Assembly: GCF_008065095.1 (NCBI RefSeq)
Contig: NZ_CP042911.1
Span: 7,110,001-7,142,000 of the forward strand
Direction of reading: 5' to 3'
DNA: 32,000 nt
Source of the DNA: Gemmata obscuriglobus
Lineage (GTDB): Bacteria > Planctomycetota > Planctomycetia > Gemmatales > Gemmataceae
The notes beneath the pieces were generated by a model. It saw nothing but the letters and a program-made list of their open reading frames with translations. It was not told the origin of the DNA and ran no database searches. This document shows, piece after piece, positions 7,489 to 29,242 of the stretch; positions within the stretch are counted from its first letter, which is position 1; each line of letters opens with the position of its first letter. A program made the translations under genes and the position numbers.

Positions 7489-7887
7489 TCATTCACCGCG
7501 CACCAGTAGCCCTTCCGTGCGCTGCCCGTCGGGCGTTTCAAGAACGAGGGTGAGGAAATCGATCCCCGGCCTCGTCTGCTCTTCCAGTACGACAGCACCG
7601 GACGTGTCGCGCACGCGGACGACACACGCGCCATTCGGACCGGGGTGGTAGTACAGGAACCCCGGCAGCCGTCGCCGGTACGGGCCGGGCATGTCGGGCG
7701 TGTACTTGACGCGCCAACCCTCCGCGAGCGAGTCTCGGCACAGTTCGTCGAGAGTGAAAGTCGGTCCGACGCTGGACCTGTCCGAGACGGCGCGTTGGCG
7801 TGCCCACCGGTCGTAGGACACTGCGAACGCCAAGGTCGTGAGGGCCACGACGCACCCAACGATCCAGACCCGACGCTGTGAGAACAT
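7489..7887 (-). CDS. Hypothetical protein with N-terminal signal anchor
   Basis: Track ORF trimmed to the ATG at 7885-7887 (MFSQRRVWIVGCVVALTTLAFAVS...). One hydrophobic N-terminal helix. No family recognised. Confidence 0.55.
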   Translation of the reverse strand: MFSQRRVWIVGCVVALTTLAFAVSYDRWARQRAVSDRSSVGPTFTLDELCRDSLAEGWRVKYTPDMPGPYRRRLPGFLYYHPGPNGACVVRVRDTSGAVVLEEQTRPGIDFLTLVLETPDGQRTEGLLVRGE

Positions 7888-7974
7888 GTCGCGCGACCTC
7901 ACCCTTTGCTCGCTGGATTTGAAGCTCGCTGATCCGGCCGCAACTCCAGCACGTGGCGAGCAGTAAGAAACGAA

Positions 7975-8406
7975 TCATGTGGTTGGGTCCGGTGCCGCAT
8001 CCGCGGCGGCACGTGCCCACACTTGCCTCAGTTGGGTAATCTGATCGGGACTGAGCAACTCCCCGATCGGCACGTCCTGACCCCGCTCCCACTGGATGGC
8101 CCGGAGTTGACCCGGGGGCGGGACCAGACCGCCGTCCGCCGCCCACACACCCGTCGCCTGGAAGAACCGGCCGCAAACCTCGGTGCCGTCGCCCAGTTCG
8201 CGGCCGATTGTGGTCAGGTGTGACACGCCCACCAGACGCATCCCGGCCGGCGGTTCGGCAGCGTATGCCAGCCCCCATGCGACGGCCTTGCGGTACGCCT
8301 CGGTCGCGTCTGTGGCGTCGAACACCACGTTCGACGCTTCGCAGCGGTAGTCGGCGCGATCCGGGCGCGGCGGTTCGGCGAACAGTAATTCCGCAAGATA
8401 CCACAT
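7975..8406 (-). CDS. Hypothetical protein, DUF4288-like N-terminal domain
   Basis: Trimmed to the ATG at 8404-8406 (MWYLAELLFAE...). The pattern WY.A.LLF ... E.S..VF.A.....AY.KA ... G.EL.DGTEV.GRFF matches my recollection of DUF4288. Not verified by search. Confidence 0.55.
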   Translation of the reverse strand: MWYLAELLFAEPPRPDRADYRCEASNVVFDATDATEAYRKAVAWGLAYAAEPPAGMRLVGVSHLTTIGRELGDGTEVCGRFFQATGVWAADGGLVPPPGQLRAIQWERGQDVPIGELLSPDQITQLRQVWARAAADAAPDPTT

Positions 8407-12355: not shown

Positions 12356-13183
12356 TCAGTCGATCATGGCCGGATCGGTATCTTTCCCGGCGATGGTACT
12401 CAAGCCGAACAGCACCCGCGGCTCGACCGCCGCGGTGAACGTGCGGACGCTGCCGTCGCACATCGCGAAGTTCGCAGTACCCGAGAAGTACCCGCCGAAC
12501 TGCCCCCCGGCCCCCACGAGCGGGGGCGCGCTCGGGGCGTCGTCCAGCCCGCGCACCGTCGCGGGGCCGCCGCGGAGCCACGGGCCGACATCGTTGCGCG
12601 TCTCCGCGAACAGGAGCGTCTGACTGATCCCGTCCGTGATCCGCTCGAACGGCGTCGGGGCGTCGTACCGCACGGCGCCCGCCCGCGGCGCGTCGAGCGG
12701 GAGCGCCGCCGCGCTGGCCCCCAGCCCGCCGATGCCCACGTAGGACGTGACCGCCGCCGCCCCCGGCGGCACCTCGGGCGGGTTTTCGGGGCACAGCAGC
12801 ATCGGGACGCGCACGCGCCCGGCGGCCTGGTTGGGCTCGAAGCTCCACGGCTTCGTGGTGTCGAGCGCGGCGAGCAGTTGGGCCGAATTCACTTTGCGCT
12901 GGTCGAGCACCGGGAGCATGGTCACGACCCAACTGAGCCGCTCCTCCGGCGGCACGCCGGGCACCACCACCGTGCCCGCGGGCACCTCCGTGAACCCCTT
13001 CGCGGGGGCGCGCCGGGGGTCGGGGTTCGCGGGCCGCGCGGCGAACAGGCTCAGCTCGCGCAAGTTGTTCTGCGACGCCGCGACGTTCGCCTGGTGCCGC
13101 GCCTTCGCGATGAACGGCAGCAGCACCGCCGCTACAAAAACAACCAGCAGCACCGCACCGATGATGGTGACCCGACGAGCCAT
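12356..13183 (-). CDS. DUF1559-like (H-X9-DG type) planctomycete protein with a degenerate pilin-like N-terminal helix
   Basis: Track ORF trimmed to the ATG at 13181-13183 (MARRVTIIGAVLLVVFVAAVLLPFIAKARHQANVAASQNNLREL). The C-terminus GGYFSGTANFAMCDGSVRTF resembles the DUF1559 C-terminal DG motif. The canonical GFTLIEL prepilin motif is absent. Confidence 0.75.
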   Translation of the reverse strand: MARRVTIIGAVLLVVFVAAVLLPFIAKARHQANVAASQNNLRELSLFAARPANPDPRRAPAKGFTEVPAGTVVVPGVPPEERLSWVVTMLPVLDQRKVNSAQLLAALDTTKPWSFEPNQAAGRVRVPMLLCPENPPEVPPGAAAVTSYVGIGGLGASAAALPLDAPRAGAVRYDAPTPFERITDGISQTLLFAETRNDVGPWLRGGPATVRGLDDAPSAPPLVGAGGQFGGYFSGTANFAMCDGSVRTFTAAVEPRVLFGLSTIAGKDTDPAMID

Positions 13184-13271
13184 CGCACTCCCCCGCGCAC
13201 CCGTGCCCACACTCACTGGTGTACGTCCGGCGCGGCCGATCGGTGCGGTCCGGTTCCACACGAGCACTCCC

Positions 13272-14750
13272 ATGCACTGGCTCCTCACGGCCGCCGCGCT
13301 CCCGCTGCTCCTCGCGCCGGTGCGGGCGGCCGACCCCACGCCGGAAGCCGTCGACGCGCTCGCGGGCGACGCGCTCAAGGCGTTCCAGGCGCCCGGAGCC
13401 GCGGTCGTGGTGCTGCGCGGCGACCAAACTCTGGTTCTGAAGGGGTACGGCCGCCGCGCGCTCGGGCGCGACGAGCCGGTCACGGCGGACACGGTGTTCC
13501 CGCTCGCGTCCTGCACGAAGCAGTTCACGACCGCCCTCCTGGCGGCGCTCGTGGACGACGGCAAGCTCGGCTGGGACGACCTGGTGAGCAAGCACCTCCC
13601 CGGGTTCAAGCTCTCCGACCCGCACGCCACCGCGCTGCTGACCGTCCGCGACCTCGTCACCCACCGCACCGGGCTGGGCAACCACGACCTCCTCTGGTAC
13701 CGCGCCCCATGGAGCATCGACCACATGCTGAAGCAGGTGCCGCGGCTGCCCCTCGATTACCCGTTCCGCAGCGGGTACCGGTACAACAGCCTCACGTTCA
13801 TGGCCGCCGGGCGGGTCGCGGAGGCGTGCGGGAAGAAGACGTGGCCGGTCCTCGTCCGCGAGCGGCTCGCCGAGCCCCTCGGCATGAAAAACGTCGCGTT
13901 CACCACCGCGGAGATCCCGAAAGACGCGGACCGCGCGCACGGGCACCGGTTGAACAAGGCCGGGAAGGTGGAAGCCGCGCCGGTGTACGAGATGCGCGAG
14001 CCGAACCCGTCCGGGTCGCTCCACGCGACCGCCCGCGATCTGGCCGCGTGGCTGGAGTTTCAGCTCTCCGACGGCGTCGCGCCCAGCGGCACGCGCCTCG
14101 TCTCCTCAAAGCCACTGGTCGAGACGCGCGCGCCGCAGAACCTCATGCGCCTGGAAGGTGCGGCGAAGGCCTTGTTCCCGGACACGGTGCAGGTGAGCTA
14201 CGCCATGGGCTGGGTGGTCAGCGACTACCGCGGCCTGAAGGTGGTCGCCCACGGCGGGCTGATCGACGGGTTCCGGGTGCAGCTCACGCTCGTGCCGGAG
14301 CGCCAGTTCGGCTTCGCGGTGCTGTGCAACATGCACGACTCGCGGCTGCCGATCGCGCTGACCAACGCGCTGATCGACCGGTACTGCGACCTGAAGTCGA
14401 AGGACTGGAACGCGTACTACGCGCGTCTTGCCGAGGAGGAGGCGGAGGCGAAGAGCGCGGCGCTGGCGGCCCGCGATCGCGCCCGCGACCCGTCCGCGAA
14501 GCCGGCGCTGCCGCTCGCGAGCTACGCGGGCACGTACTCACACCCGGCCTACGGCCCCGCGACCGTGACCCACGCCGGCGGGGCGCTGACGGCGAAGTTC
14601 AGCAGCTTCTCGCTGCCGCTCGAGCACTTCGAGCGCGACACGTTCCGCATCACCGGGGCGTTCTTCGAGAGCGATCTGGTGCGGTTCGGCGTGAGCGACG
14701 GAAAGGCCACATCGCTGACGCTCGCCGGCATCGAGTTCAAGCGAAAATGA
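13272..14750 (+). CDS. Secreted serine hydrolase, beta-lactamase/PBP-related family with a DUF3471-like C-terminal domain
   Basis: Trimmed to the ATG at 13272-13274. Signal peptide MHWLLTAAALPLLLAPVRAADP. The active-site SxxK is within FPLASCTKQFT. AHGG motif is present. The C-terminal block YAGTYSHPAYGPATVTHAGGALTAKF...LEHFERDTF is typical of the accessory domain of this family. Confidence 0.88.
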   Translation: MHWLLTAAALPLLLAPVRAADPTPEAVDALAGDALKAFQAPGAAVVVLRGDQTLVLKGYGRRALGRDEPVTADTVFPLASCTKQFTTALLAALVDDGKLGWDDLVSKHLPGFKLSDPHATALLTVRDLVTHRTGLGNHDLLWYRAPWSIDHMLKQVPRLPLDYPFRSGYRYNSLTFMAAGRVAEACGKKTWPVLVRERLAEPLGMKNVAFTTAEIPKDADRAHGHRLNKAGKVEAAPVYEMREPNPSGSLHATARDLAAWLEFQLSDGVAPSGTRLVSSKPLVETRAPQNLMRLEGAAKALFPDTVQVSYAMGWVVSDYRGLKVVAHGGLIDGFRVQLTLVPERQFGFAVLCNMHDSRLPIALTNALIDRYCDLKSKDWNAYYARLAEEEAEAKSAALAARDRARDPSAKPALPLASYAGTYSHPAYGPATVTHAGGALTAKFSSFSLPLEHFERDTFRITGAFFESDLVRFGVSDGKATSLTLAGIEFKRK

Positions 14751-14857
14751 CGCCGGCGCGCCTCGGTGTCAGAACACCGGATCGGCTCGCCCGAACCCGT
14801 CCGCGGCCGAAGCGAACCTGGACCGGAACGACCGTGCGGCTATACTTGGTGCGAATA

Positions 14858-14980
14858 GAATCCAGTCGTTTCAAGTTCCAGGTTCCAAGTCGGAACCCCG
14901 CTCGTCAAAAGCGCCGGCGGTTCGTGTCGCTCGTGACTTCACTTGGAACTTGGAACCTGGAACTTGAAACGACTGGATTC
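14858..14980. repeat. MITE-like palindromic element, copy A
   Basis: Terminal inverted repeats are gaatccagtcgtttcaagttccaggttccaagt (14858-14890) and acttggaacttggaacctggaacttgaaacgactggattc (14941-14980), around a 50-nt core. A second copy at 22913-23042 has its core in the opposite orientation. Confidence 0.8.
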
Positions 14981-15003
14981 TTACTGACGCCTAACGGTGA
15001 GCC

Positions 15004-16032
15004 ATGCCCAGGCCCTACGAACGCGAGTACACCGACCTCGGTAAGAAGCGCAACCGCTCCAACACCTTCCAGCTCCCCGCCGGAATCCCCGCGTGGCTCC
15101 CGGCCGTCATCTGGCTCGGCGGCGGCCTGCTCCCGCTGGCGCTCCTCCTGATCGCGGCCGTGGCCAGCGGAACGCGGCCGGTGCTGATGCCGCTGGCCCT
15201 CATCACCGGCCTGCTCAGTTTTATGACCGGGTGGGTGTGGCTGATGATCGTCGCGGCCTCTGACGGAATCGGAACACTGCTGATGTGTATGTTTGTTCCG
15301 TTTTACGGCCTGTACTATGTGCTGAACAATCTCGACCAAACGCTGCGCCCGGTGTTCCTGTACGTCCTCGGGCTTGCCGTAGTTGCGTCCGCGGGGTTCG
15401 TCCCCGCCCCGCCCCCCAAGCCGCTGCCCCCGCCCGAGCAAGTGCAGAACGAACCGCGCAACGGACCCGCGTCCGTTGATCCGCCCAAGGTGAAGCCGTC
15501 GGAGCCGAAACCGGCTCCGAAAAAAGGCCCCCCGCCCACCGTCGCCGTGCCGAAGCCGCCGTTCGACGTGGACCCGAAGGCGAAGGACACCGGTCCCAAA
15601 GCGTACCTCGCGTCGCTGACGCCGTTCGACTACCAGGCCGGCCCGTGGAAGCTCGGGGTCGGGGTGCGCGGTGACGACCTGAAAACGCCGATCCGCGTCA
15701 AAGGCCAGGAGTACCGGTACGGGTTCTCGACGCACCCGCCGGAGAAAGGCGCGTGCCGGGTCAGCTTCGTGCCCGGGCGCGAGTTCAAGCGGTTCAAGGG
15801 GTGGGCCGGGGTCGGCGACAGCATCGGCACGCTGTCCGGCCCGGTCGTGTTCGCGGTGTACGGCGACGGCCGCCAGTTGTGGGAGTCGGCCGGGGTCGGC
15901 GCGCCCGGAGACACGGCCGGGTTCGACATCGACGTGACCGGCGTGAAGGTGCTCACACTGGAGGCGCGCATGCAGAGCGGGTTCAACCACCTGGCCCACG
16001 CCTCCTGGCTCGACCCGTGGCTGGAGCGCTGA
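15004..16032 (+). CDS. Membrane protein with Pro/Lys-rich linker and C-terminal NPCBM-like domain
   Basis: ATG at 15004. About three hydrophobic helices lie in residues 30-135, followed by a PPKPLPPPE...KPAPKKGPPP linker. The C-terminal block AYLASLTPFDY...G.EYRYGFSTHPP...F.GWAGVGDS...VVFAVYGDGRQLWES...DIDVTGVKVLTLEA...HASWLDPWLE follows the NPCBM/NEW2 pattern as I recall it. Confidence 0.78.
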   Translation: MPRPYEREYTDLGKKRNRSNTFQLPAGIPAWLPAVIWLGGGLLPLALLLIAAVASGTRPVLMPLALITGLLSFMTGWVWLMIVAASDGIGTLLMCMFVPFYGLYYVLNNLDQTLRPVFLYVLGLAVVASAGFVPAPPPKPLPPPEQVQNEPRNGPASVDPPKVKPSEPKPAPKKGPPPTVAVPKPPFDVDPKAKDTGPKAYLASLTPFDYQAGPWKLGVGVRGDDLKTPIRVKGQEYRYGFSTHPPEKGACRVSFVPGREFKRFKGWAGVGDSIGTLSGPVVFAVYGDGRQLWESAGVGAPGDTAGFDIDVTGVKVLTLEARMQSGFNHLAHASWLDPWLER

Positions 16033-16191
16033 CCGGCGCCCGTTCACGGTCACCCGCTCCGCGCCGGTGGCGCAGACGGCGCCCGTTGACGCACAAACGT
16101 GCCGGAACGTGAACCCGTCGTCGGGGATGCCAAGGGGTCGACGGCGCGGGGCGTTCCGCAAGCGCCCAGGTTCAATCTCGGCTACGCGTAA

Positions 16192-16259
16192 CCCCGATCG
16201 GTCAACGGTGCGGGCCGGCAACCTGCAGGTTGCCGGCCCGCACCGTTGACCGATCGGGG
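16192..16259. terminator. 68-bp perfect palindrome between convergent genes (probable bidirectional terminator / cruciform element)
   Basis: ccccgatcggtcaacggtgcgggccggcaacctg|caggttgccggcccgcaccgttgaccgatcgggg. The two 34-nt arms have no mismatch and are centred on ctgcag at 16225/16226. It lies between the stop at 16030-16032 (+) and the stop at 16265-16267 (-). Confidence 0.85.
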
Positions 16260-16264
16260 CATGA

Positions 16265-18031
16265 TCACCAGCGGTACATGAGACCGAAGCTGATGCCCTG
16301 GACGAAGTACCCGCTGCTGTTAAACTGCGGGGCCGGGCGGATCGTGTTGGTGAGAGGCGCCCCCGTGCCCGGCGGCAACAGGTTCGGCACCCGGGCCGCG
16401 TCCAGACGCATGTCGATCGCGTCGCCCGGCCGCAGCGCGCTGCTCAGGTACAGGAAGTTGTACCCGACGAACAGCTTCATCCGCTCCGTCGCCTGCCAGC
16501 CCAGGTTCAGGCCCACCTCCGGCACCACCGCGAACTTGTCCCGGCTGAACTTGCCGATGTTCGCCCCCGGCACCGCCAGCAGCCCGCCCGGGGTGACCGT
16601 CGTGGTCTGGTCCGGGAAGTTCAGCGTCTGCGAGCCGTTGATCTCGGCCGTCTGGCGCACCGTACCGAACGCCACCGTGGCCCGCGGGTCGAGCGACCAC
16701 CGGCCCCGCGTGAACGTGCCCGCGATCCCGATCTGACCGCCGTGGAACCGGTTCGTCGTGCGGAACGAGTCGGTGATCGTGCCCGAAATGGCCGGCACGC
16801 CGATGGCCGGGTCCGAGTCCGGGGTGCGCACGAACCGCTCGGTGATCGTGAGCTCCTCGCGCAGGTCCAGGAACCGGTAGCCGGCGAGCAGGTCGAGCCG
16901 CATGTTCGGCCCGCTGGTCAGGTACCGCCGGTAGTTCACCTCCGCGCCCCACACGGTGTTCTTCAGCGTCACCAGCACGCTCCCGGTGGCCACGCCGGGG
17001 CGGGCGACGATCTCGGACGACTCCCCGAACCCCACGGTCGGCGCGGTGGTCGGGTTGATGTTAAAGAACGGCCGCGCCAGGAGCGGGTTCTGGGTCGTGG
17101 TCGTGAAGAACGACGTGGTCGCCGGCGCCACCCAGAACAGCCGGGCGTCCACCCCGCGGCACTCGCCGTCCCCGAACCAGTACCCGGCCCCGACCCGCCC
17201 GCCGGTGTGGTACGTGTCGCCGAACGAGCCGCCCAGTAGCACCCGGGTGTCGCCCTGGCCGATGATGCCCAGCGCCGCCGTGCTGCTGGTGGTCACCAGC
17301 GGCGGCACCACCGTGCCCCGGTTCCACCACATGAGCAGTTCGGCGCTCACCCAGCCCCGGCGGACGCTCGCGACCCGGTCCAGCCCGGTGAGCGGCGCGT
17401 CCGAGAACAGCGGGTCCTCGACCTCTACCGGACAGCCGGCCCCGCCGTCCGGCAGGACCGACGGCACGAAGGTCGTCCCGTCGGGGACACGGCCGGTCGG
17501 GTCGCGCGACTCGGTGACGCTCGGCGGCCCCCCCCCCGGCGCGACCCGCGGCGAGCCGAGCGGGGCGGGCTGCGCGCCGGTCACCGGGAAGCCCACCATC
17601 CCTCCGGGCACCGGCCCGCTCGTAACGGGATATCCGACCGGTCCGCCCGTAACGGGGTACCCGACCGGCCCGCCCGTAACGGGGTACCCGACCGGCCCGC
17701 CCGTAACGGGGTACCCGACCGGCCCACTCGTGGTCGGAACGCCGGTCACCGGGAACCCGACCGGGGGGGCACCTGTTACCGAACCGCCGACGACCGGCGT
17801 GGCGGGTGCGGGGGAGCCGAAGGTTCCCGGCGCGTAGCTCACGGTCCCGCGGGGCGCCCCGCCGCGGAGCAGGCCCGTTTGCGTAACCTCTGTGGGTTGT
17901 GAGTCCGGGAGCGCGCTGGGCAGCCCTAATGAGGCGGCACGCGGCGCGCCGGTTCGCGGCTGTTGAGCCAGGGCCGGGGGGGCGAACACGCCCAGCGCGA
18001 TCCCCAGCCCGCCGAGCAGAATGCGGCGCAT
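16265..18031 (-). CDS. BBP7-type outer-membrane beta-barrel protein with an N-terminal Gly/Pro/Val repeat region
   Basis: Trimmed to the ATG at 18029-18031, with aggagg 10 nt upstream. Signal peptide MRRILLGGLGIALGVFAPPALAQQ. The block SAELLMWWNRGTVVPPLVTTSS is typical of planctomycete BBP7 proteins. The C-terminal half shows alternating beta-strand patterning and ends in an aromatic residue (...GLMYRW). Confidence 0.8.
   Translation of the reverse strand: MRRILLGGLGIALGVFAPPALAQQPRTGAPRAASLGLPSALPDSQPTEVTQTGLLRGGAPRGTVSYAPGTFGSPAPATPVVGGSVTGAPPVGFPVTGVPTTSGPVGYPVTGGPVGYPVTGGPVGYPVTGGPVGYPVTSGPVPGGMVGFPVTGAQPAPLGSPRVAPGGGPPSVTESRDPTGRVPDGTTFVPSVLPDGGAGCPVEVEDPLFSDAPLTGLDRVASVRRGWVSAELLMWWNRGTVVPPLVTTSSTAALGIIGQGDTRVLLGGSFGDTYHTGGRVGAGYWFGDGECRGVDARLFWVAPATTSFFTTTTQNPLLARPFFNINPTTAPTVGFGESSEIVARPGVATGSVLVTLKNTVWGAEVNYRRYLTSGPNMRLDLLAGYRFLDLREELTITERFVRTPDSDPAIGVPAISGTITDSFRTTNRFHGGQIGIAGTFTRGRWSLDPRATVAFGTVRQTAEINGSQTLNFPDQTTTVTPGGLLAVPGANIGKFSRDKFAVVPEVGLNLGWQATERMKLFVGYNFLYLSSALRPGDAIDMRLDAARVPNLLPPGTGAPLTNTIRPAPQFNSSGYFVQGISFGLMYRW
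17612..17730. repeat. In-frame 27-nt tandem repeat (about 4.4 units) inside the BBP7 gene
   Basis: The cgtaacggg motif recurs at 17621, 17648, 17675 and 17702, an exact 27-nt period. It encodes GPVGYPVTG x4 with degenerate flanking copies (GFPVTGVP..., MVGFPVTG). Confidence 0.88.
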
Positions 18032-18112
18032 GTGAAGCGGTCCTCCTGACACGCCGGCCGGGCGATCTCCTACCGCCCGAGTTACGTCACGTCGTCTCCT
18101 TCCTTCGACCCG

Positions 18113-18727
18113 CGGTCGGCACCGCCCCGACCCGCGGCCCCCCGCTCGGGCCAACTTCTGGGCTCCGGCGCCCGCACCGGCGGCGCGTCGGGCGCGGCCG
18201 CCACTCCCGGCACGTCCGGCACAACCATACGATCCGCGCCTGCAGGGCGAAATGTTCAAGCGGGGCACCTGCGGCGGTCGAAGAAACACGCGCGCGACTG
18301 CGTAAGACACGTGATCCAGAGGAATGCGTCAAGGAGGGCAACCGTGACGACTCGCCGCACGCGTCTCAAGAAGGGTCTGAAGAAGCTGGTCCCGGTGATG
18401 ACCGTGACCTTCACAGCGGCCCCGTTCGCCGTGTGGGTTCAGCCGGCCCACGCGTTCTTCCCGCCCTTTATCAACGATTCGGGACCGCCCAGAGTATTGC
18501 CGCAGCCGCCCTCGCCGCCCCCCTTCGAGCCGCCGACGCCCCCGCCGCCGCCATTCAACCCGCCGCCCCAACCACCGGACGTGTCGCCGCCGGTGTGCCC
18601 CCCGCCGCCCCCGTGCGGGGTGCCGGAGCCCGCGACCGTCGTGAGCGGGTTGATCGGGCTGGCCGCGGCCGCCGGCTACGGGCTCCGCCGCAACGGCGAG
18701 AAGAAGTAAGAACAGAACCGGCGAACC
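18113..18727. repeat. Segmental tandem duplication, copy 1 (leader + PEP-CTERM gene)
   Basis: Aligns with 19111-19747. From gggccaacttctg (18148 / 19141) to the start codons the offset is constant at 993 nt. Confidence 0.88.
18344..18709 (+). CDS. Small secreted proline-rich PEP-CTERM sorting-domain protein (121 aa)
   Basis: GTG at 18344-18346 is preceded by aaggaggg (18331-18338); the paralog starts at the equivalent GTG. Signal peptide ...VMTVTFTAAPFAVWVQPAHA. The mature core is ~53% Pro by my count. The C-terminus is CPPPPPCGVPEPATVVSGLIGLAAAAGYGLRRNGEKK, i.e. VPEP + hydrophobic helix + basic tail. Confidence 0.8.
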   Translation: MTTRRTRLKKGLKKLVPVMTVTFTAAPFAVWVQPAHAFFPPFINDSGPPRVLPQPPSPPPFEPPTPPPPPFNPPPQPPDVSPPVCPPPPPCGVPEPATVVSGLIGLAAAAGYGLRRNGEKK

Positions 18728-19110
18728 GGCTCGCGACCGTACTTACGATCCGGTTGGCTACGTTTGTTTCTTGTGGCACCGACATTCCTCAGTCGTTGCC
18801 ACGGCTACGGCGTGCTCGGTCATTCGGGCGTGGTGTGGGAGCCCCGTCTGTCCCGCGCCGGGTGTGGTGTGGGGTGTGAATGTGATGATCAAATCCCAGC
18901 GGTTGCTCGCGAGTGTGTCGGCGCTGCCGGCGATCCACCACCCGCGAATCAGCAGTCGCGCCGCCGTAATAGCAACCGGTACACCGGGCGCGTGGCCCGG
19001 GTCCGGTGCTCGCCCCGCTGACGGTAGCTGGCCTCGGTTCCGAACTGGGTACGATCGTCCAAAATGGACCGGGATAACCGATCGAATCCGTCGGATTATG
19101 CGCACACGAA

Positions 19111-19747
19111 CGGTCGGCCCCGACCCGCGGTCCTGTGGTCGGGCCAACTTCTGAGGGCCGGCGCCCGCACCGGCGGCGCGTCGGGCCCGGCCGCCACTCC
19201 CGGCACGTCCGGCACAACTGCGCGAGCCGCGCACGCAGGGCGAAATGTTCAAGCGGGGCACTCGCGGCGGTCGAAGAAACAAAAGCGCGACTGCGTAAGA
19301 CACGTGATCTAGAGGAATGCGTCAAGGAGGGCAATCGTGACGACTCGCCGCACGCGTCTCAAGAAGGGTCTGAAGAAGCTGGTCCCGGTGATGACCGTGA
19401 CCTTCACAGCGGCCCCGTTCGCCGTGTGGGTTCAGCCGGCCCACGCGTTCTTCCCGCCGGTGATCACCAGCCCGCCGCCGGTCGTCGTGGTGCCGCCGAC
19501 GCTCCCGCCGCCGGTGATCGTGGACCCGCCGGTCAGCCCGCCGCCGTTCGTACCGCCGCCCCCGCCGCCCGTCGTGGTGCCGCCGGTTGTTCCGCCGGTC
19601 GTGGTGCCGCCGGTGTGCCCGCCGCCGCCCCCGTGCGGGGTGCCGGAGCCCGCGACCGTCGTGAGCGGGCTGATCGGGCTGGCCGCGGCCGCCGGCTACG
19701 GGCTCCGCCGTAACGGTGAGAAGAAGTAAGAACAGAACCGGCGGACC
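19111..19747. repeat. Segmental tandem duplication, copy 2 (leader + PEP-CTERM gene)
   Basis: See copy 1. The upstream in-frame TAG (gatctagagg) fixes the start of this copy at GTG 19337. Confidence 0.88.
19337..19729 (+). CDS. Small secreted proline/valine-rich PEP-CTERM sorting-domain protein (130 aa), paralog of 18344..18709
   Basis: GTG at 19337-19339 with aaggaggg upstream. The first 122 nt are identical to the paralog. The core FFPPVITSPPPVVVVPPTLPPPVIVDPPVSPPPFVPPPPPPVVVPPVVPPVVVPPV is 50% Pro. The C-terminal 41 codons give the same protein sequence, with 4 synonymous differences. Confidence 0.85.
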   Translation: MTTRRTRLKKGLKKLVPVMTVTFTAAPFAVWVQPAHAFFPPVITSPPPVVVVPPTLPPPVIVDPPVSPPPFVPPPPPPVVVPPVVPPVVVPPVCPPPPPCGVPEPATVVSGLIGLAAAAGYGLRRNGEKK

Positions 19748-19789
19748 GCCCCGCGCCCCACTGTCTTGAGGGGCGCGGGGCGGTCCGCC
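19740..19789. terminator. 20-bp perfect-stem GC hairpin between convergent genes
   Basis: ggcggaccgccccgcgcccc (19740-19759) / loop actgtcttga / ggggcgcggggcggtccgcc (19770-19789). It lies between the PEP-CTERM paralog stop and the acyl-CoA dehydrogenase stop. Confidence 0.8.
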
Positions 19790-19842
19790 AGTCCTTGTAC
19801 CGAACTCCGACGAACGCGGCCGCGTAACCGTGCGGCGTGCGG

Positions 19843-21024
19843 CTACTTGAACGCTTCCCACTCCTTGCCCAGTAGCGCGGCCGCGATCTTCAGCTTGAGG
19901 ATCTCGTCGGTGCCCTCGTAGATGCGGCACACGCGCACGTCGGTGAGGTGCCGGCCGGGGCGGTACAGGGTGCTCCAGCCGCGCCCGCCGAACACCTGCA
20001 CGGCGCGGTCCGCGGCGTCCCAGGCGGCGTTGGTGGCGAACAGCTTGGCTTGCGCCGCCAGCAGGTCCGCGTGCCGGGCCAGCTCCTTGTCGCCGGGGCT
20101 CGCCGCCGACCGGTCCTTCGCCTCGGCGGCGCGGATCAGCAGCGCGTCCGAGGCCACGCGGTCCATCTCGATGTGCGCGATGTGGTCCTGAACGAGTTGG
20201 TGCCGGGCGATCTCCTTGCCGTGCTGCTTCCGCTCCTTGGCGTACCAGATCGCCTCCGCGAGGCAGTCCTCGATCACCCCCAGGCACCCGGCGGCGACGC
20301 TCAGGCGCCCGCTCACGAGCGTGCCCATCGCGACCCGGAACCCGTCGCCCTCCTCGCCCACCAGGTTCTCCGCGGGCACGGCCACGTCGTGCATCTCGAA
20401 CATGGCGGTGTTGGACGTGGGCATCCCCATCTTGGCGTTCGCGGCGAAGCTCTCGGCCTCGAACCCCTTGGCGGCCGTGTCCACGACGAACGCGGAGATG
20501 CGGCCCGTGCCCACCTGCCCCGCGGGGTACGCGAACGCGACCACCGCGTGCGCGATGCCCCCGTTGGAGATCAGGTACTTCACCCCGTTGAGGACGTAGT
20601 GATCGCCCCGCTTCTCGTAGGTGCTGGTCATCTCGCGCGGGTTGCTGCCGGCGTCGGGCTCGGTGAGCCCGAAGGCGAGGATCTTCTCCCCCTTCGCAGC
20701 GGCGGGCAGGTACTTCCGCTTGAGCGCCTCGCTGCCCCACGTCTGGATCGGGTACGCCCCGATGCTCAGGTGCCCGGAGAAGAAGGTGCGGACGGTGGTT
20801 CCCTCGCGCCCTATGCGGGCGAGCGCCTTGAAGTAGCTGACGGCGTCGGCGCCGCGCCCGCCGTACTCGGGCTTCACGTTCATGCCCAGGAGGTCGTGCT
20901 TCGCGGCCAGCGGCACCACCTGGTCGTTGAACTGCCGGTTCGCGTACGCGAACTCTTCGGCCGGCCGCACCTCCTGACAGAACGCTTCGGTGTCGGCGGC
21001 CAGCTTAACGGGGTCGAACGCCAT
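19843..21024 (-). CDS. Acyl-CoA dehydrogenase family protein
   Basis: 393 aa, ATG at 21022-21024. ACAD-typical blocks are present: FGLTEPDAGSNP, YLISNGGIA, QVFGGRGW, RIYEGTDEI. Confidence 0.92.
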   Translation of the reverse strand: MAFDPVKLAADTEAFCQEVRPAEEFAYANRQFNDQVVPLAAKHDLLGMNVKPEYGGRGADAVSYFKALARIGREGTTVRTFFSGHLSIGAYPIQTWGSEALKRKYLPAAAKGEKILAFGLTEPDAGSNPREMTSTYEKRGDHYVLNGVKYLISNGGIAHAVVAFAYPAGQVGTGRISAFVVDTAAKGFEAESFAANAKMGMPTSNTAMFEMHDVAVPAENLVGEEGDGFRVAMGTLVSGRLSVAAGCLGVIEDCLAEAIWYAKERKQHGKEIARHQLVQDHIAHIEMDRVASDALLIRAAEAKDRSAASPGDKELARHADLLAAQAKLFATNAAWDAADRAVQVFGGRGWSTLYRPGRHLTDVRVCRIYEGTDEILKLKIAAALLGKEWEAFK

Positions 21025-27645: not shown

Positions 27646-29242
27646 CAGTGCTGTGCACAACTGAGTTCAGGGATCCTCGTTGGGCTTGTGGGCTTGTCGA
27701 CGCCGTTGGACGGAGGTGTGTGCCCCCTTCTGTTTCGCGGCGTGCGGGTGGGCACGGGGCGCCTTGTTGCGTGTCTTGTCCCAGCCCGGCTTCCACATCG
27801 TGCCCAATAACTGATCCAACAACGTTCCCACACTCTCTGCCGTCTGATCCGTCGGGATCAGGGACACGATCATCGACACCTCGACCAACTCCTTGAGCGC
27901 GGCCAACTGACGATGCCAGTCCGTGCAGAACTGCGCCGTCGAGAGGTCGTCGATGGTCACCTTCCGCTTCGCAACCACATAGCCCTGGAGGACCTGCACC
28001 ACGTTCGCGAGGACGAAACACATCGACGCCTGAAACACGGTCGCCTCCGGTGTCGAACCGATGAACCGACCCAGGGCGAAGATCGCCGTCACCTTTTGGA
28101 ACGTGCCTTCGATGGTCCACCGGATGCGGTACAGGTCCAACAGATCGGTCGCCGGGTATGGGGCCGAATCGAGCAGGTCCGTGAGGATTGTAATCGCTTC
28201 GCCCACCGGGCGCGCGACGGTGATCCGCCGGACGTACCGGCGGAGCTTGTCCTTGGGCTTCCCGGCCCACCCCCATTCTTCGACCACGGCTCGTTGGGAT
28301 GGGTCCGCGGTCGTGACCGCGGGGCGCTTCGGGTCGGGTTCGAACGACAGGGTCCGCGCGTACCGCACCACGAAATGACCATTGTCCTTGGTGAACTCGG
28401 CGAAGTGCTTCGACGCACAGAACAACCGATCCCCGACCACCAGTTTCGCCGGACCGCCTCGGGCGTGCACTCGGGGCATCAAATCGGGGATCAGTTTGGC
28501 CTCGTTGGTTTCGCCATCGAGATCGGCCGCCATGTCGAGCACCAACCCGTCACGGGGCCGGTACGCCACGAGCAGTTTTCCGCCCAAGAGCTTGCCCGGT
28601 GTGCCCCGCGTGTCGACGAGTCGCTTGGCCACCTTCTTGAGACTCTTGCCGTCGAGGATCAGAACCTCCAGGCGGTCGAAGGAGGTCGGAAGGCGGTGCG
28701 CGACGACCTCGGGGAACAGGGCGGTGAACCGGTCGGTGACGTCCCGCAGGAACGCTTCGCTCAGGCCCCGGGGGATGCGCCGGAGCTTGCCGTAGAACGC
28801 TTCGTGGCACCCGTCGTCGGGTTGCCGGTGGCGTCGCAGGTGGGCCTGCCGCCCCGAGCCCTGGTGTTCGATGAGCGCATCGAAGATCCAGGTGACCAGT
28901 TGGGCGAAGGTCACGACGTCCTCATAGCCGCGTCCCCGATGTCGCTCGTAGAGGTCCGCGAGGACCGGGTCGGGAACGCCATAGGCGAAGAGTGCGAGCG
29001 ACGCGTGGGCCAGTGGCAGGCCCTCCAGGACCTGGCGCGCGAAGTCCGTGGGCGCGTGCGGTTGGGAGCGTGGGACGCGCTGATGAGGTGGCAGAATCAC
29101 GGTGACCTCCATGTCCCGGGTCGCGGACCCCGCACCACCCCGCGTCCCACGACCACTCGGTTAACCCCAATTTCGTCGCAGTGAAAACCCTAAATCAGCA
29201 ATCCGCAATCAGTTATACAAATCCAAGATGTGCATAGCACTG
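27646..29242 (-). mobile_element. IS4-family insertion sequence (1597 bp), apparently intact
   Basis: The terminal inverted repeat is cagtgctgtgcacaact... (27646) versus the reverse complement of the right end cagtgctatgcacatct... (29242), 15 of the first 17 positions matching. A 9-bp target duplication ggatatccc flanks it (27637-27645 and 29243-29251). Confidence 0.85.
27667..29112 (-). CDS. IS4-family DDE transposase
   Basis: 481 aa, ATG at 29110-29112. It carries the LDGKSL and VVGDRLF D-containing blocks and a YRIRWTIEGTFQK (YREK-like) signature. Confidence 0.88.
   Translation of the reverse strand: MEVTVILPPHQRVPRSQPHAPTDFARQVLEGLPLAHASLALFAYGVPDPVLADLYERHRGRGYEDVVTFAQLVTWIFDALIEHQGSGRQAHLRRHRQPDDGCHEAFYGKLRRIPRGLSEAFLRDVTDRFTALFPEVVAHRLPTSFDRLEVLILDGKSLKKVAKRLVDTRGTPGKLLGGKLLVAYRPRDGLVLDMAADLDGETNEAKLIPDLMPRVHARGGPAKLVVGDRLFCASKHFAEFTKDNGHFVVRYARTLSFEPDPKRPAVTTADPSQRAVVEEWGWAGKPKDKLRRYVRRITVARPVGEAITILTDLLDSAPYPATDLLDLYRIRWTIEGTFQKVTAIFALGRFIGSTPEATVFQASMCFVLANVVQVLQGYVVAKRKVTIDDLSTAQFCTDWHRQLAALKELVEVSMIVSLIPTDQTAESVGTLLDQLLGTMWKPGWDKTRNKAPRAHPHAAKQKGAHTSVQRRRQAHKPNEDP

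Follow-up and report, generated by a model that had tools for sequence, protein, structure and literature searches.

How can two neighbouring genes share almost identical ends and yet differ so strongly in between? This question is raised by a 32,000-nucleotide (nt) stretch of Gemmata obscuriglobus DNA (assembly GCF_008065095.1, contig NZ_CP042911.1, forward-strand positions 7,110,001 to 7,142,000), referred to here as the window, whose G+C content is 67%. It carries a tandem pair of very small genes (hereafter mini-genes, copy 1 and copy 2) encoding proline-rich proteins with a C-terminal PEP-CTERM sorting signal, and copy 1 is divergent from a gene for a BBP7 outer-membrane beta-barrel. The explanation that we favour, and consider reasonably probable, is that the pair arose within this species by tandem duplication of a gene that Gemmataceae conserve as a single copy, that copy 2 is the ancestral version and the core of copy 1 was changed as a block, and that the gene product is an envelope protein coupled to BBP7. 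An earlier description made from the letters of the window (the sequence-only reading) had proposed gene conversion or cassette exchange between fixed ends. The features concerned are listed below in window positions, which are used throughout unless another numbering is named.

18344..18709, forward strand: copy 1, 121 amino acids (aa), GobsT_60000 / WP_010051674, with a Pfam PEP-CTERM match; it sits in the ancestral slot beside BBP7 and has a derived hydrophilic core
18466..18586, forward strand: core of copy 1, with private substitutions, a deletion and a composition of its own; no match in public data
19337..19729, forward strand: copy 2, 130 aa, GobsT_60010 / WP_010051671, the canonical member, ancestral in sequence, which of the two matches the family as a whole best
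19459..19606, forward strand: core of copy 2, made of PPV.PPPVIVV-type repeats with 33- and 27-nt periods (Tandem Repeats Finder and family alignments)
18124..18738, forward strand: left copy of the duplicated unit, comprising ~220 nt upstream, the gene and ~30 nt downstream (repeat search and three-way alignment)
19117..19758, forward strand: right-hand copy of this unit; its identity to G. algarum 7780-8393 (in the numbering of that locus) is 91.5%
18739..19116: junction spacer between the units, 378 nt, 63% GC
19734..19795: inverted repeat of 26 nt (92% complementary) that resembles a terminator hairpin, located between copy 2 and the acyl-CoA dehydrogenase gene convergent with it
19843..21024, reverse strand: acyl-CoA dehydrogenase gene (Pfam), in the slot taken by an XrtA-system deacetylase gene in relatives

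Both open reading frames (ORFs) begin with GTG, at 18344 and 19337, and the two start codons are 993 nt apart, as had been described. Each GTG is preceded by AAGGAGGG, and the start position is shared by the orthologues. The first 122 nt of the ORFs are completely identical, the last 123 nt differ at four positions, all synonymous (CCC/CCG, TTG/CTG, CGC/CGT and GGC/GGT), and the cores measure 121 nt in copy 1 and 148 nt in copy 2; on all these points the sequence-only reading was accurate. It had also put the proline content of the mature parts at 50-53%, which agrees with the 52.7% and 50.0% that we obtained for the two copies before the VPEP motif; over the entire mature protein the share is only ~37%. 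The proline runs were overestimated, since the longest comprise six residues in copy 2 and five in copy 1, rather than seven. Likewise, to call the cores unalignable was slightly overstated, although their strong difference was rightly recognised: 76 of 123 nt are identical when one 27-nt gap is allowed. With one scoring scheme, this alignment scored higher than 990 of 1000 codon shuffles; with a gap-permissive one, 192 of 500 shuffles did as well.

The duplicated unit is larger than the ORFs, and its upstream ~220 nt differ between the copies at 23 positions (10.5%). Since the pair is present in the draft contig ABGO01000508 as well as in the complete genome CP025958, and accessions for both proteins stem from several G. 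obscuriglobus submissions, it is not an assembly artefact. Locus L001 (CP025958.1 883171-903536, reversed) overlaps the window and covers ~10 kb on either side of copy 1.

Differences between the copies were polarised with G. algarum JC673, whose single mini-gene encodes a protein 98.5% identical to copy 2, and synonymous (dS) and nonsynonymous (dN) divergence was calculated by the Nei-Gojobori method.

Upstream 220 nt: 13 differences private to copy 1, 10 private to copy 2, 11 common to both against G. algarum
N-terminal end, 122 nt: 0 private to copy 1, 0 private to copy 2, 4 common against G. algarum
Core: 44 private to copy 1 plus the 27-nt deletion, 1 private to copy 2, 2 common against G. 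algarum
C-terminal end, 123 nt: 2 private to copy 1, 1 private to copy 2, 15 common against G. algarum
Copy 1 versus copy 2, ends: dS 0.063, dN 0
Copy 1 versus copy 2, core: dS 0.50, dN 0.57
Copy 2 versus G. algarum, ends: dS 0.36, dN 0.012
Copy 2 versus G. algarum, core: dS 0.22, dN 0

These data show that copy 2 has the ancestral sequence and that copy 1 is a mosaic. The core of copy 2 is under strong purifying selection, its protein sequence being the same in G. algarum. Because point mutation at a plausible rate cannot give a dS of 0.50 in 121 nt beside one of 0.063 in the flanking 245 nt, the core of copy 1 must have changed as a block. The statement that the pair is not the outcome of simple divergence after duplication is thus borne out. 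As for the gene conversion or cassette exchange offered in its place, a block change of the copy 1 core is supported, whereas conversion of the ends is possible but unproven.

By codon position, 17, 16 and 15 of 41 sites in the core differ between the copies; the copy 1 substitutions comprise 17 transitions and 27 transversions, and all four ancestral bases were hit. Proline is encoded in copy 1 by 12 CCG, 7 CCC and 2 CCA codons (9 of 21 non-CCG), compared to 22 CCG and 2 CCC in copy 2, and G+C at third codon positions (GC3) is 0.80, compared to 0.94-1.0 in copy 2 and the orthologues. Valine and isoleucine together make up 7% of the copy 1 core, while the minimum among 108 homologues is 17%. 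Moreover, this core has a 30-nt repeat of its own (2.3 units), which encodes two copies of a PPPF.PP unit. Neither core contains lysine, and arginine is nearly absent from both.

A donor for this core was sought at the protein and DNA levels. A word-indexed search of 5.8 billion proteins with the whole of copy 1 returned only family members with canonical cores, and phmmer with the 41-aa core found no match among 1.84 billion representatives, a search whose power is limited by the short, low-complexity query. In the DNA of all loci compared, tblastn of the copy 1 core gave compositional matches only. A compensated frameshift or an inversion was also considered as its origin and rejected: read in another frame or on the reverse strand, the canonical core encodes Arg/Ala/Gly-rich sequence unlike copy 1, and a gap-permissive DNA alignment did not outscore codon shuffles.

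The surroundings of the pair bear on the time of the duplication. G. algarum is collinear with window positions 12356-18709, its BBP7 protein being 95.7% identical, and a polysaccharide deacetylase gene directly follows its single mini-gene. In G. obscuriglobus, this collinearity stops at the stop codon of copy 1. The missing block, consisting of the deacetylase gene, a gene for a 254-aa protein and a gene for a TPR protein, lies at 6.41 Mb, 5.5 Mb away (locus L020, CP025958.1 6406683-6427585), and is 93.6% identical to that of G. algarum. The breakpoint falls in the ~120-nt gap between the mini-gene stop and the deacetylase stop (window 18709-19843; L010 8394-8512), and the acyl-CoA dehydrogenase gene is the new neighbour brought in by the rearrangement that removed the deacetylase block.

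The two flanks are divided between the copies. Copy 1 has the ancestral left flank, as the sequence to the left of 18124 follows G. algarum, whereas the new right flank with the hairpin accompanies copy 2. Beside copy 1, only ~30 nt of this right flank are left, including, according to blastn of the 3' flank, only part of the left arm of the hairpin. Given that the shared 3' flank belongs to the rearrangement junction, the duplication took place after the rearrangement, and a tandem duplication at that stage would give the observed flanks together with a 378-nt filler. This spacer has no match in G. algarum or in any other locus compared, and no Rfam family was found anywhere in the window, spacer included. 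Both the duplication and the rearrangement are specific to G. obscuriglobus, and we estimate the duplication to be roughly one sixth to one quarter as old as the divergence between this species and G. algarum. A DDE_Tnp_1 transposase gene was noted ~9 kb downstream of the pair, at ~27667-29160 (L001 19324-20366).

Both proteins belong to the PEP-CTERM class, as had been claimed. Their Pfam PF07589 scores (22.9 bits for copy 1 and 22.7 bits for copy 2) exceed the gathering score of 20.7, both C-termini carry the tail VPEPATVVSGLIGLAAAAGYGLRRNGEKK, and RefSeq names both "PEP-CTERM sorting domain-containing protein". An NCBIfam hmmscan of the two proteins gave no TIGR02595 match at E <= 1. In a regular-expression scan of all ORFs of the window, only these two showed the C-terminal order of a Pro-Glu-Pro triad, a hydrophobic transmembrane stretch and a basic cluster. 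The Pfam and NCBIfam models cover the sorting signal only, with no match to the rest of either protein. Within the known class, the mini-proteins form an uncharacterised family: with copy 2 as query against the 5.8 billion proteins, at least 200 proteins scored E <= 0.001 among 8,000 candidates, with lengths of 100-161 aa, and among the matches listed all named sources are Gemmata or Gemmataceae. We found no paper on this family, on the pairing of BBP7 with PEP-CTERM proteins or on exosortase in Gemmata.

More than 200 homologues have this architecture in common, along with a core that is conserved, and family members are 105-160 aa long. The N-terminus is basic, then hydrophobic, and ends in a nearly universal AxA|FFPP motif (in the two copies, the n-region reads RRTRLKKGLKK and, after a hydrophobic stretch, the site reads AHA|FF). 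The core follows, with medians of 62 residues, 45% proline and 32% valine plus isoleucine, built of PPV.PPPVIVV-type units and ranging from 34 to 72 residues; VPEP or TPEP, a hydrophobic helix and a basic tail complete the protein. Processing by an exosortase would be in keeping with this layout. The Cys-P5-Cys "clasp" that the sequence-only reading placed before the sorting signal is not a family feature, as 58 of 108 homologues have no cysteine in the 12 residues before the PEP motif. Nor does the family as a whole combine fixed ends with variable cores: when species are compared, the core is better conserved than any other segment, and copy 1 is the only one to deviate. For example, copy 2 and the relative represented by locus L003 differ nonsynonymously in 5 of 50 core codons, compared to 8 of 40 and 6 of 41 codons in the ends. 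AlphaFold2 (109 sequences) gave helices at residues 4-30 and 105-127 only, and no regular structure over residues 31-104 (pLDDT, its per-residue confidence, ~66-78; pTM, its global score, 0.25; no compact fold). On this model, residues 31-104 are predicted to be an extended chain and, if polyproline-II-like, the mature segment before the PEP motif would be ~20 nm long for copy 2 and ~17 nm for copy 1.

The neighbouring barrel gene had been reported as divergent from copy 1 across a shared 312-nt region, as is the case.

16265..18031, reverse strand: BBP7 outer-membrane beta-barrel gene, 588 aa, ATG at 18031, Pfam PF07585
17610..17725, reverse strand: tandem repeat in the N-terminal extension of BBP7, 27 nt x 4.3, 94% matches (Tandem Repeats Finder), encoding GYPVTGGPV units
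18032..18343: divergent intergenic region, 312 nt, with conserved blocks GAAAT..C.AAG and CCGAAGAAA and the ribosome-binding site AAGGAGGG

The PF07585 match spans profile positions 1-350 of 350 (5.4e-93, 312.4 bits against a threshold of 26). The divergent pair of BBP7 and mini-gene is present at every locus in which the upstream DNA is covered, that is, in the window and in 17 of 17 others. In those 17 loci the mini-gene is single-copy, and the BBP7 orthologues occupy the same divergent position (44-96% aa identity) and are separated from the mini-gene by 288-343 nt, mostly 312-315 nt. The MRRILLGG start of BBP7 is conserved. The suggestion that the mini-proteins work with the adjacent barrel thereby gains a strongly conserved synteny, which may reflect a functional coupling of mini-gene and BBP7. 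An alignment of 13 intergenic regions revealed Gemmataceae-wide conservation of the blocks GAAAT..C.AAG and CCGAAGAAA, which lie ~60-95 nt before the mini-gene start and are retained by both copies (18245-18343 and 19239-19336, alignment columns ~280-325). These blocks may represent a promoter or a regulator-binding site. The intergenic region has no match to the sigma-70 consensus, and no conserved RNA structure was found upstream of the mini-gene (RNAalifold consensus -2.3 kcal/mol, no covariation). On the other side of BBP7, the upstream neighbour (15004-16032) encodes a 342-aa protein that is conserved in G. algarum; ~4 membrane segments are predicted in it, and it has a Pro-rich linker and, at its C-terminus, an NPCBM/NEW2 domain.

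Could the pair nevertheless be older than its flanks imply? Under concerted evolution of an older duplicate, the core would be saturated by old divergence, while repeated conversion would homogenise the coding ends, its tracts stopping at the non-homologous core. In keeping with this, the upstream 220 nt are nearly equidistant (23 differences between the copies, 24 between copy 1 and G. algarum, 21 between copy 2 and G. algarum), while the coding ends differ at 4 sites between the copies and have 19 common differences from G. algarum; the contrast between upstream region and ends (23 versus 11; 4 versus 19) is significant (Fisher's exact p = 0.005), and dS in the core (0.50) is higher than between species (0.22-0.39). 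We nevertheless consider such a history rather unlikely. G. algarum and all other relatives have a single canonical gene, arranged exactly as in the ancestor and directly followed by the deacetylase gene, and the common 3' flank comes from a junction specific to G. obscuriglobus, which places the duplication after the rearrangement. Moreover, the contrast could also stem from upstream constraint having been relaxed after a recent duplication, in which case the 4 synonymous differences observed do not depart significantly from the ~7 expected, and nonsynonymous and synonymous differences are about equal in the copy 1 core, unlike in an old functional paralogue. The same near-equality (dN/dS ~1.1) would fit with copy 1 being a decaying, functionless duplicate, whose (CCG)n-rich core would have been scrambled by slippage and mutation and whose ends would be conserved merely through recency. 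The GC3 of 0.80 with rare codons (TTT, GAT, GGA, AGA, GTA, CCA and CAA), the loss of the family-defining Val/Ile stripes, the internal 30-nt x 2.3 repeat and the restriction of this core to one species all agree with decay. This possibility deserves to be taken seriously but remains doubtful to us: the frame is intact despite 44 substitutions and an in-frame 27-nt deletion, proline is retained in 21 of 41 core codons, the 80 end codons show no nonsynonymous change, and the promoter-proximal conserved blocks and the ribosome-binding site are intact. Neutral change, besides, cannot give a core dS of 0.50 beside 0.063 in the ends, so that a block event is needed anyway.

The model of the sequence-only reading, a programmed system of polyproline spacers that are exchanged between fixed sorting ends and vary in length and composition, explains why the ends are identical and the cores different at this locus, and the family core does range in length from 34 to 72 residues. 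It is very improbable, as the core is the most conserved part across the family, all relatives have one gene per locus, and neither silent cassettes nor copy 1-like cores occur in the loci compared or in protein databases; in addition, the Pfam listing of the called genes of L001 contains no recombinase beside the pair, the DDE transposase being ~9 kb away. Targeted hypermutation of the core, for instance by a diversity-generating retroelement, would explain why the change is so extremely localised between conserved flanks. It is scarcely credible here, since the substitutions fall on all ancestral bases (A 5/7, C 11/52, G 19/40, T 9/17) rather than selectively on adenine, a 27-nt deletion is also present, and the same Pfam listing contains no reverse transcriptase. 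The substitution spectrum effectively refutes the core as the variable repeat of a variable-repeat/template-repeat pair of such a retroelement.

We therefore return to the species-specific duplication with a block change in copy 1, for which the following course of events is proposed. The ancestral cluster would have comprised BBP7, the mini-gene, an XrtA-type polysaccharide deacetylase, a second protein with a VPAP-CTERM tail and a giant TPR protein. The mini-protein would consist of a Sec signal peptide cut at AxA|FFPP, a Pro/Val rod of ~55-64 residues (~17-20 nm if fully extended), VPEP, and a membrane helix followed by a basic tail. A chromosomal rearrangement in the lineage of G. obscuriglobus would have cut the cluster right after the mini-gene stop codon. 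A segment made up of the gene, ~220 nt of its promoter region and ~30 nt of its newly acquired 3' flank would then have been duplicated in tandem around a 378-nt filler. Copy 2 would have kept the ancestral sequence. In copy 1, a block event, whether ectopic recombination, template switching or slippage between repeats, would have replaced or scrambled the core, so that the hydrophobic Pro/Val rod became shorter, hydrophilic and Pro-rich, while purifying selection, possibly helped by gene conversion, would have kept the sorting ends intact.

Several points weigh against this account. The upstream divergence between the copies (10.5%) exceeds that at the synonymous sites of the ends (6%), which makes the dating of the duplication ambiguous and leaves room for gene conversion. 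The searches described above yielded no donor for the copy 1 core, whose change would fit replacement and in-situ scrambling alike. The core dN/dS of ~1.1 and the rare A/T-ending codons are equally compatible with a loss of function of copy 1. Finally, all that would tie the mini-protein functionally to BBP7 is conserved synteny.

In most loci, the gene that follows the mini-gene, in convergent orientation, encodes a polysaccharide deacetylase. This enzyme passes the equivalog cut-off of NCBIfam TIGR03006, "XrtA system polysaccharide deacetylase" (285.6 and 288.1 versus 276.2 bits), and such a gene is adjacent or nearby in most relatives, as in an exopolysaccharide-type locus. The mini-gene was parted from the deacetylase gene by two rearrangements that arose independently, one in G. 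obscuriglobus and one in the L003 relative; none parted it from BBP7. In four loci, the deacetylase gene is followed by a gene for a secreted protein of 254-314 aa (L007 8008-8835, L010 9872-10705, L015 9692-10636 and L020 8710-9474) and by one for a TPR protein of ~1470 aa. The former protein is Ser/Thr/Gly/Asn-rich, with a tail VPAPGGLVL..LP.(I/F)GLRR..RK that resembles PEP-CTERM, goes unrecognised by both Pfam and NCBIfam and may represent a modified form of the sorting signal. The best NCBIfam match of the TPR protein is PrsT, far below the cut-off, so that its identity as PrsT is weak. Two-component genes beside the relocated deacetylase gene were considered as PrsR/PrsK and set aside as generic, the models scoring well below their cut-offs. 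No exosortase gene was found within ~10 kb in any locus examined, and a scan of 13 loci gave no protein with at least 4 membrane segments except the NPCBM protein. Taken as a whole, the conserved gene neighbourhood of BBP7, mini-protein, deacetylase and TPR protein would point to a cell-envelope or exopolysaccharide module.

These features recall several known systems. Planctomycetes are among the PEP-CTERM-positive lineages, and an EpsH homologue has been reported from Rhodopirellula baltica (Haft et al. 2006, PMC1569441). The mini-proteins resemble substrates of the PEP-CTERM/exosortase (EpsH, XrtA) system in their VPEP motif, helix, basic tail, PF07589 score and putative N-terminal signal peptide, and in the location of the gene, in relatives, near those for an XrtA-system deacetylase and a PrsT-like TPR protein. 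They differ from it in that the passenger is tiny and made of Pro/Val repeats, whereas the usual passenger is Ser/Thr/Gly/Asn-rich. Unlike in XrtA loci, the mini-gene is paired with BBP7, which is not a described XrtA component, and the loci examined contain no exosortase gene within the ~10 kb covered.

A periplasm-spanning, proline-rich region, (Glu-Pro)n-(Lys-Pro)n, is known from TonB. By analogy, the mini-protein could act as a comparable spacer, with a one-helix anchor, an extended polyproline-like segment of ~17-20 nm and a genetic link to an outer-membrane barrel. However, its anchor is C-terminal instead of N-terminal, it has VIVV stripes in place of charged dipeptides, it lacks a C-terminal globular domain and ExbBD partners, and there is no sequence homology. 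In the PgaA/PgaB system, an outer-membrane barrel is paired with a polysaccharide deacetylase, and the ancestral cluster could be seen as similar in setting a beta-barrel gene beside that of a periplasmic polysaccharide deacetylase; here the analogy is limited by BBP7 not being a PgaA porin with TPR, by the deacetylase belonging to the TIGR03006 subfamily and by the mini-protein having no pga counterpart. The sharply discordant divergence (dS 0.06 in the ends versus 0.50 in the core) is that of mosaic paralogues formed by duplication and conversion or segmental replacement, except that the copy 1 core has no donor found and is absent from every relative, and that these are not old paralogues with homogenised ends. 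The pair is thus a clean, small example of a mosaic paralogue and reveals no new kind of mechanism, the swapped core being a local evolutionary event.

Planctomycete envelopes are poorly understood, and to our knowledge no functions have been assigned to BBP7 barrels or to planctomycete PEP-CTERM proteins. A pair that has survived at least two independent rearrangements and is found family-wide offers a testable lead to the function of one BBP7 barrel, and synteny ties this barrel to XrtA-type exopolysaccharide machinery. The conserved BBP7/mini-protein/deacetylase/TPR cluster is therefore a more useful lead than the swapped core, although the ancestral and core-swapped versions do occur together in one genetically tractable organism. 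More speculatively, and in our opinion improbable in its entirety, BBP7 and the mini-protein could form an undescribed trans-envelope module common to the family. In such a module, a ~20-nm rod, anchored in the inner membrane or transferred by an exosortase, would dock with or pass through the barrel and take part, with the XrtA-type deacetylase, in building a surface polysaccharide, and copy 1 would be a functional second rod, shorter and hydrophilic in its core, created by block replacement. If this were true, nature would have carried out in copy 1 an experiment on how a tether of this kind can be retuned.

With respect to polysaccharides, it should be noted that three distant relatives have a gene for an NAD-dependent sugar epimerase/dehydratase on the downstream side of the mini-gene, at a distance of 2-3 kb, and these neighbours give a hint of a polysaccharide context.

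L021 9189-10205: sugar epimerase/dehydratase gene
L022 8065-8994: sugar epimerase/dehydratase gene
L023 8109-9092: sugar epimerase/dehydratase gene

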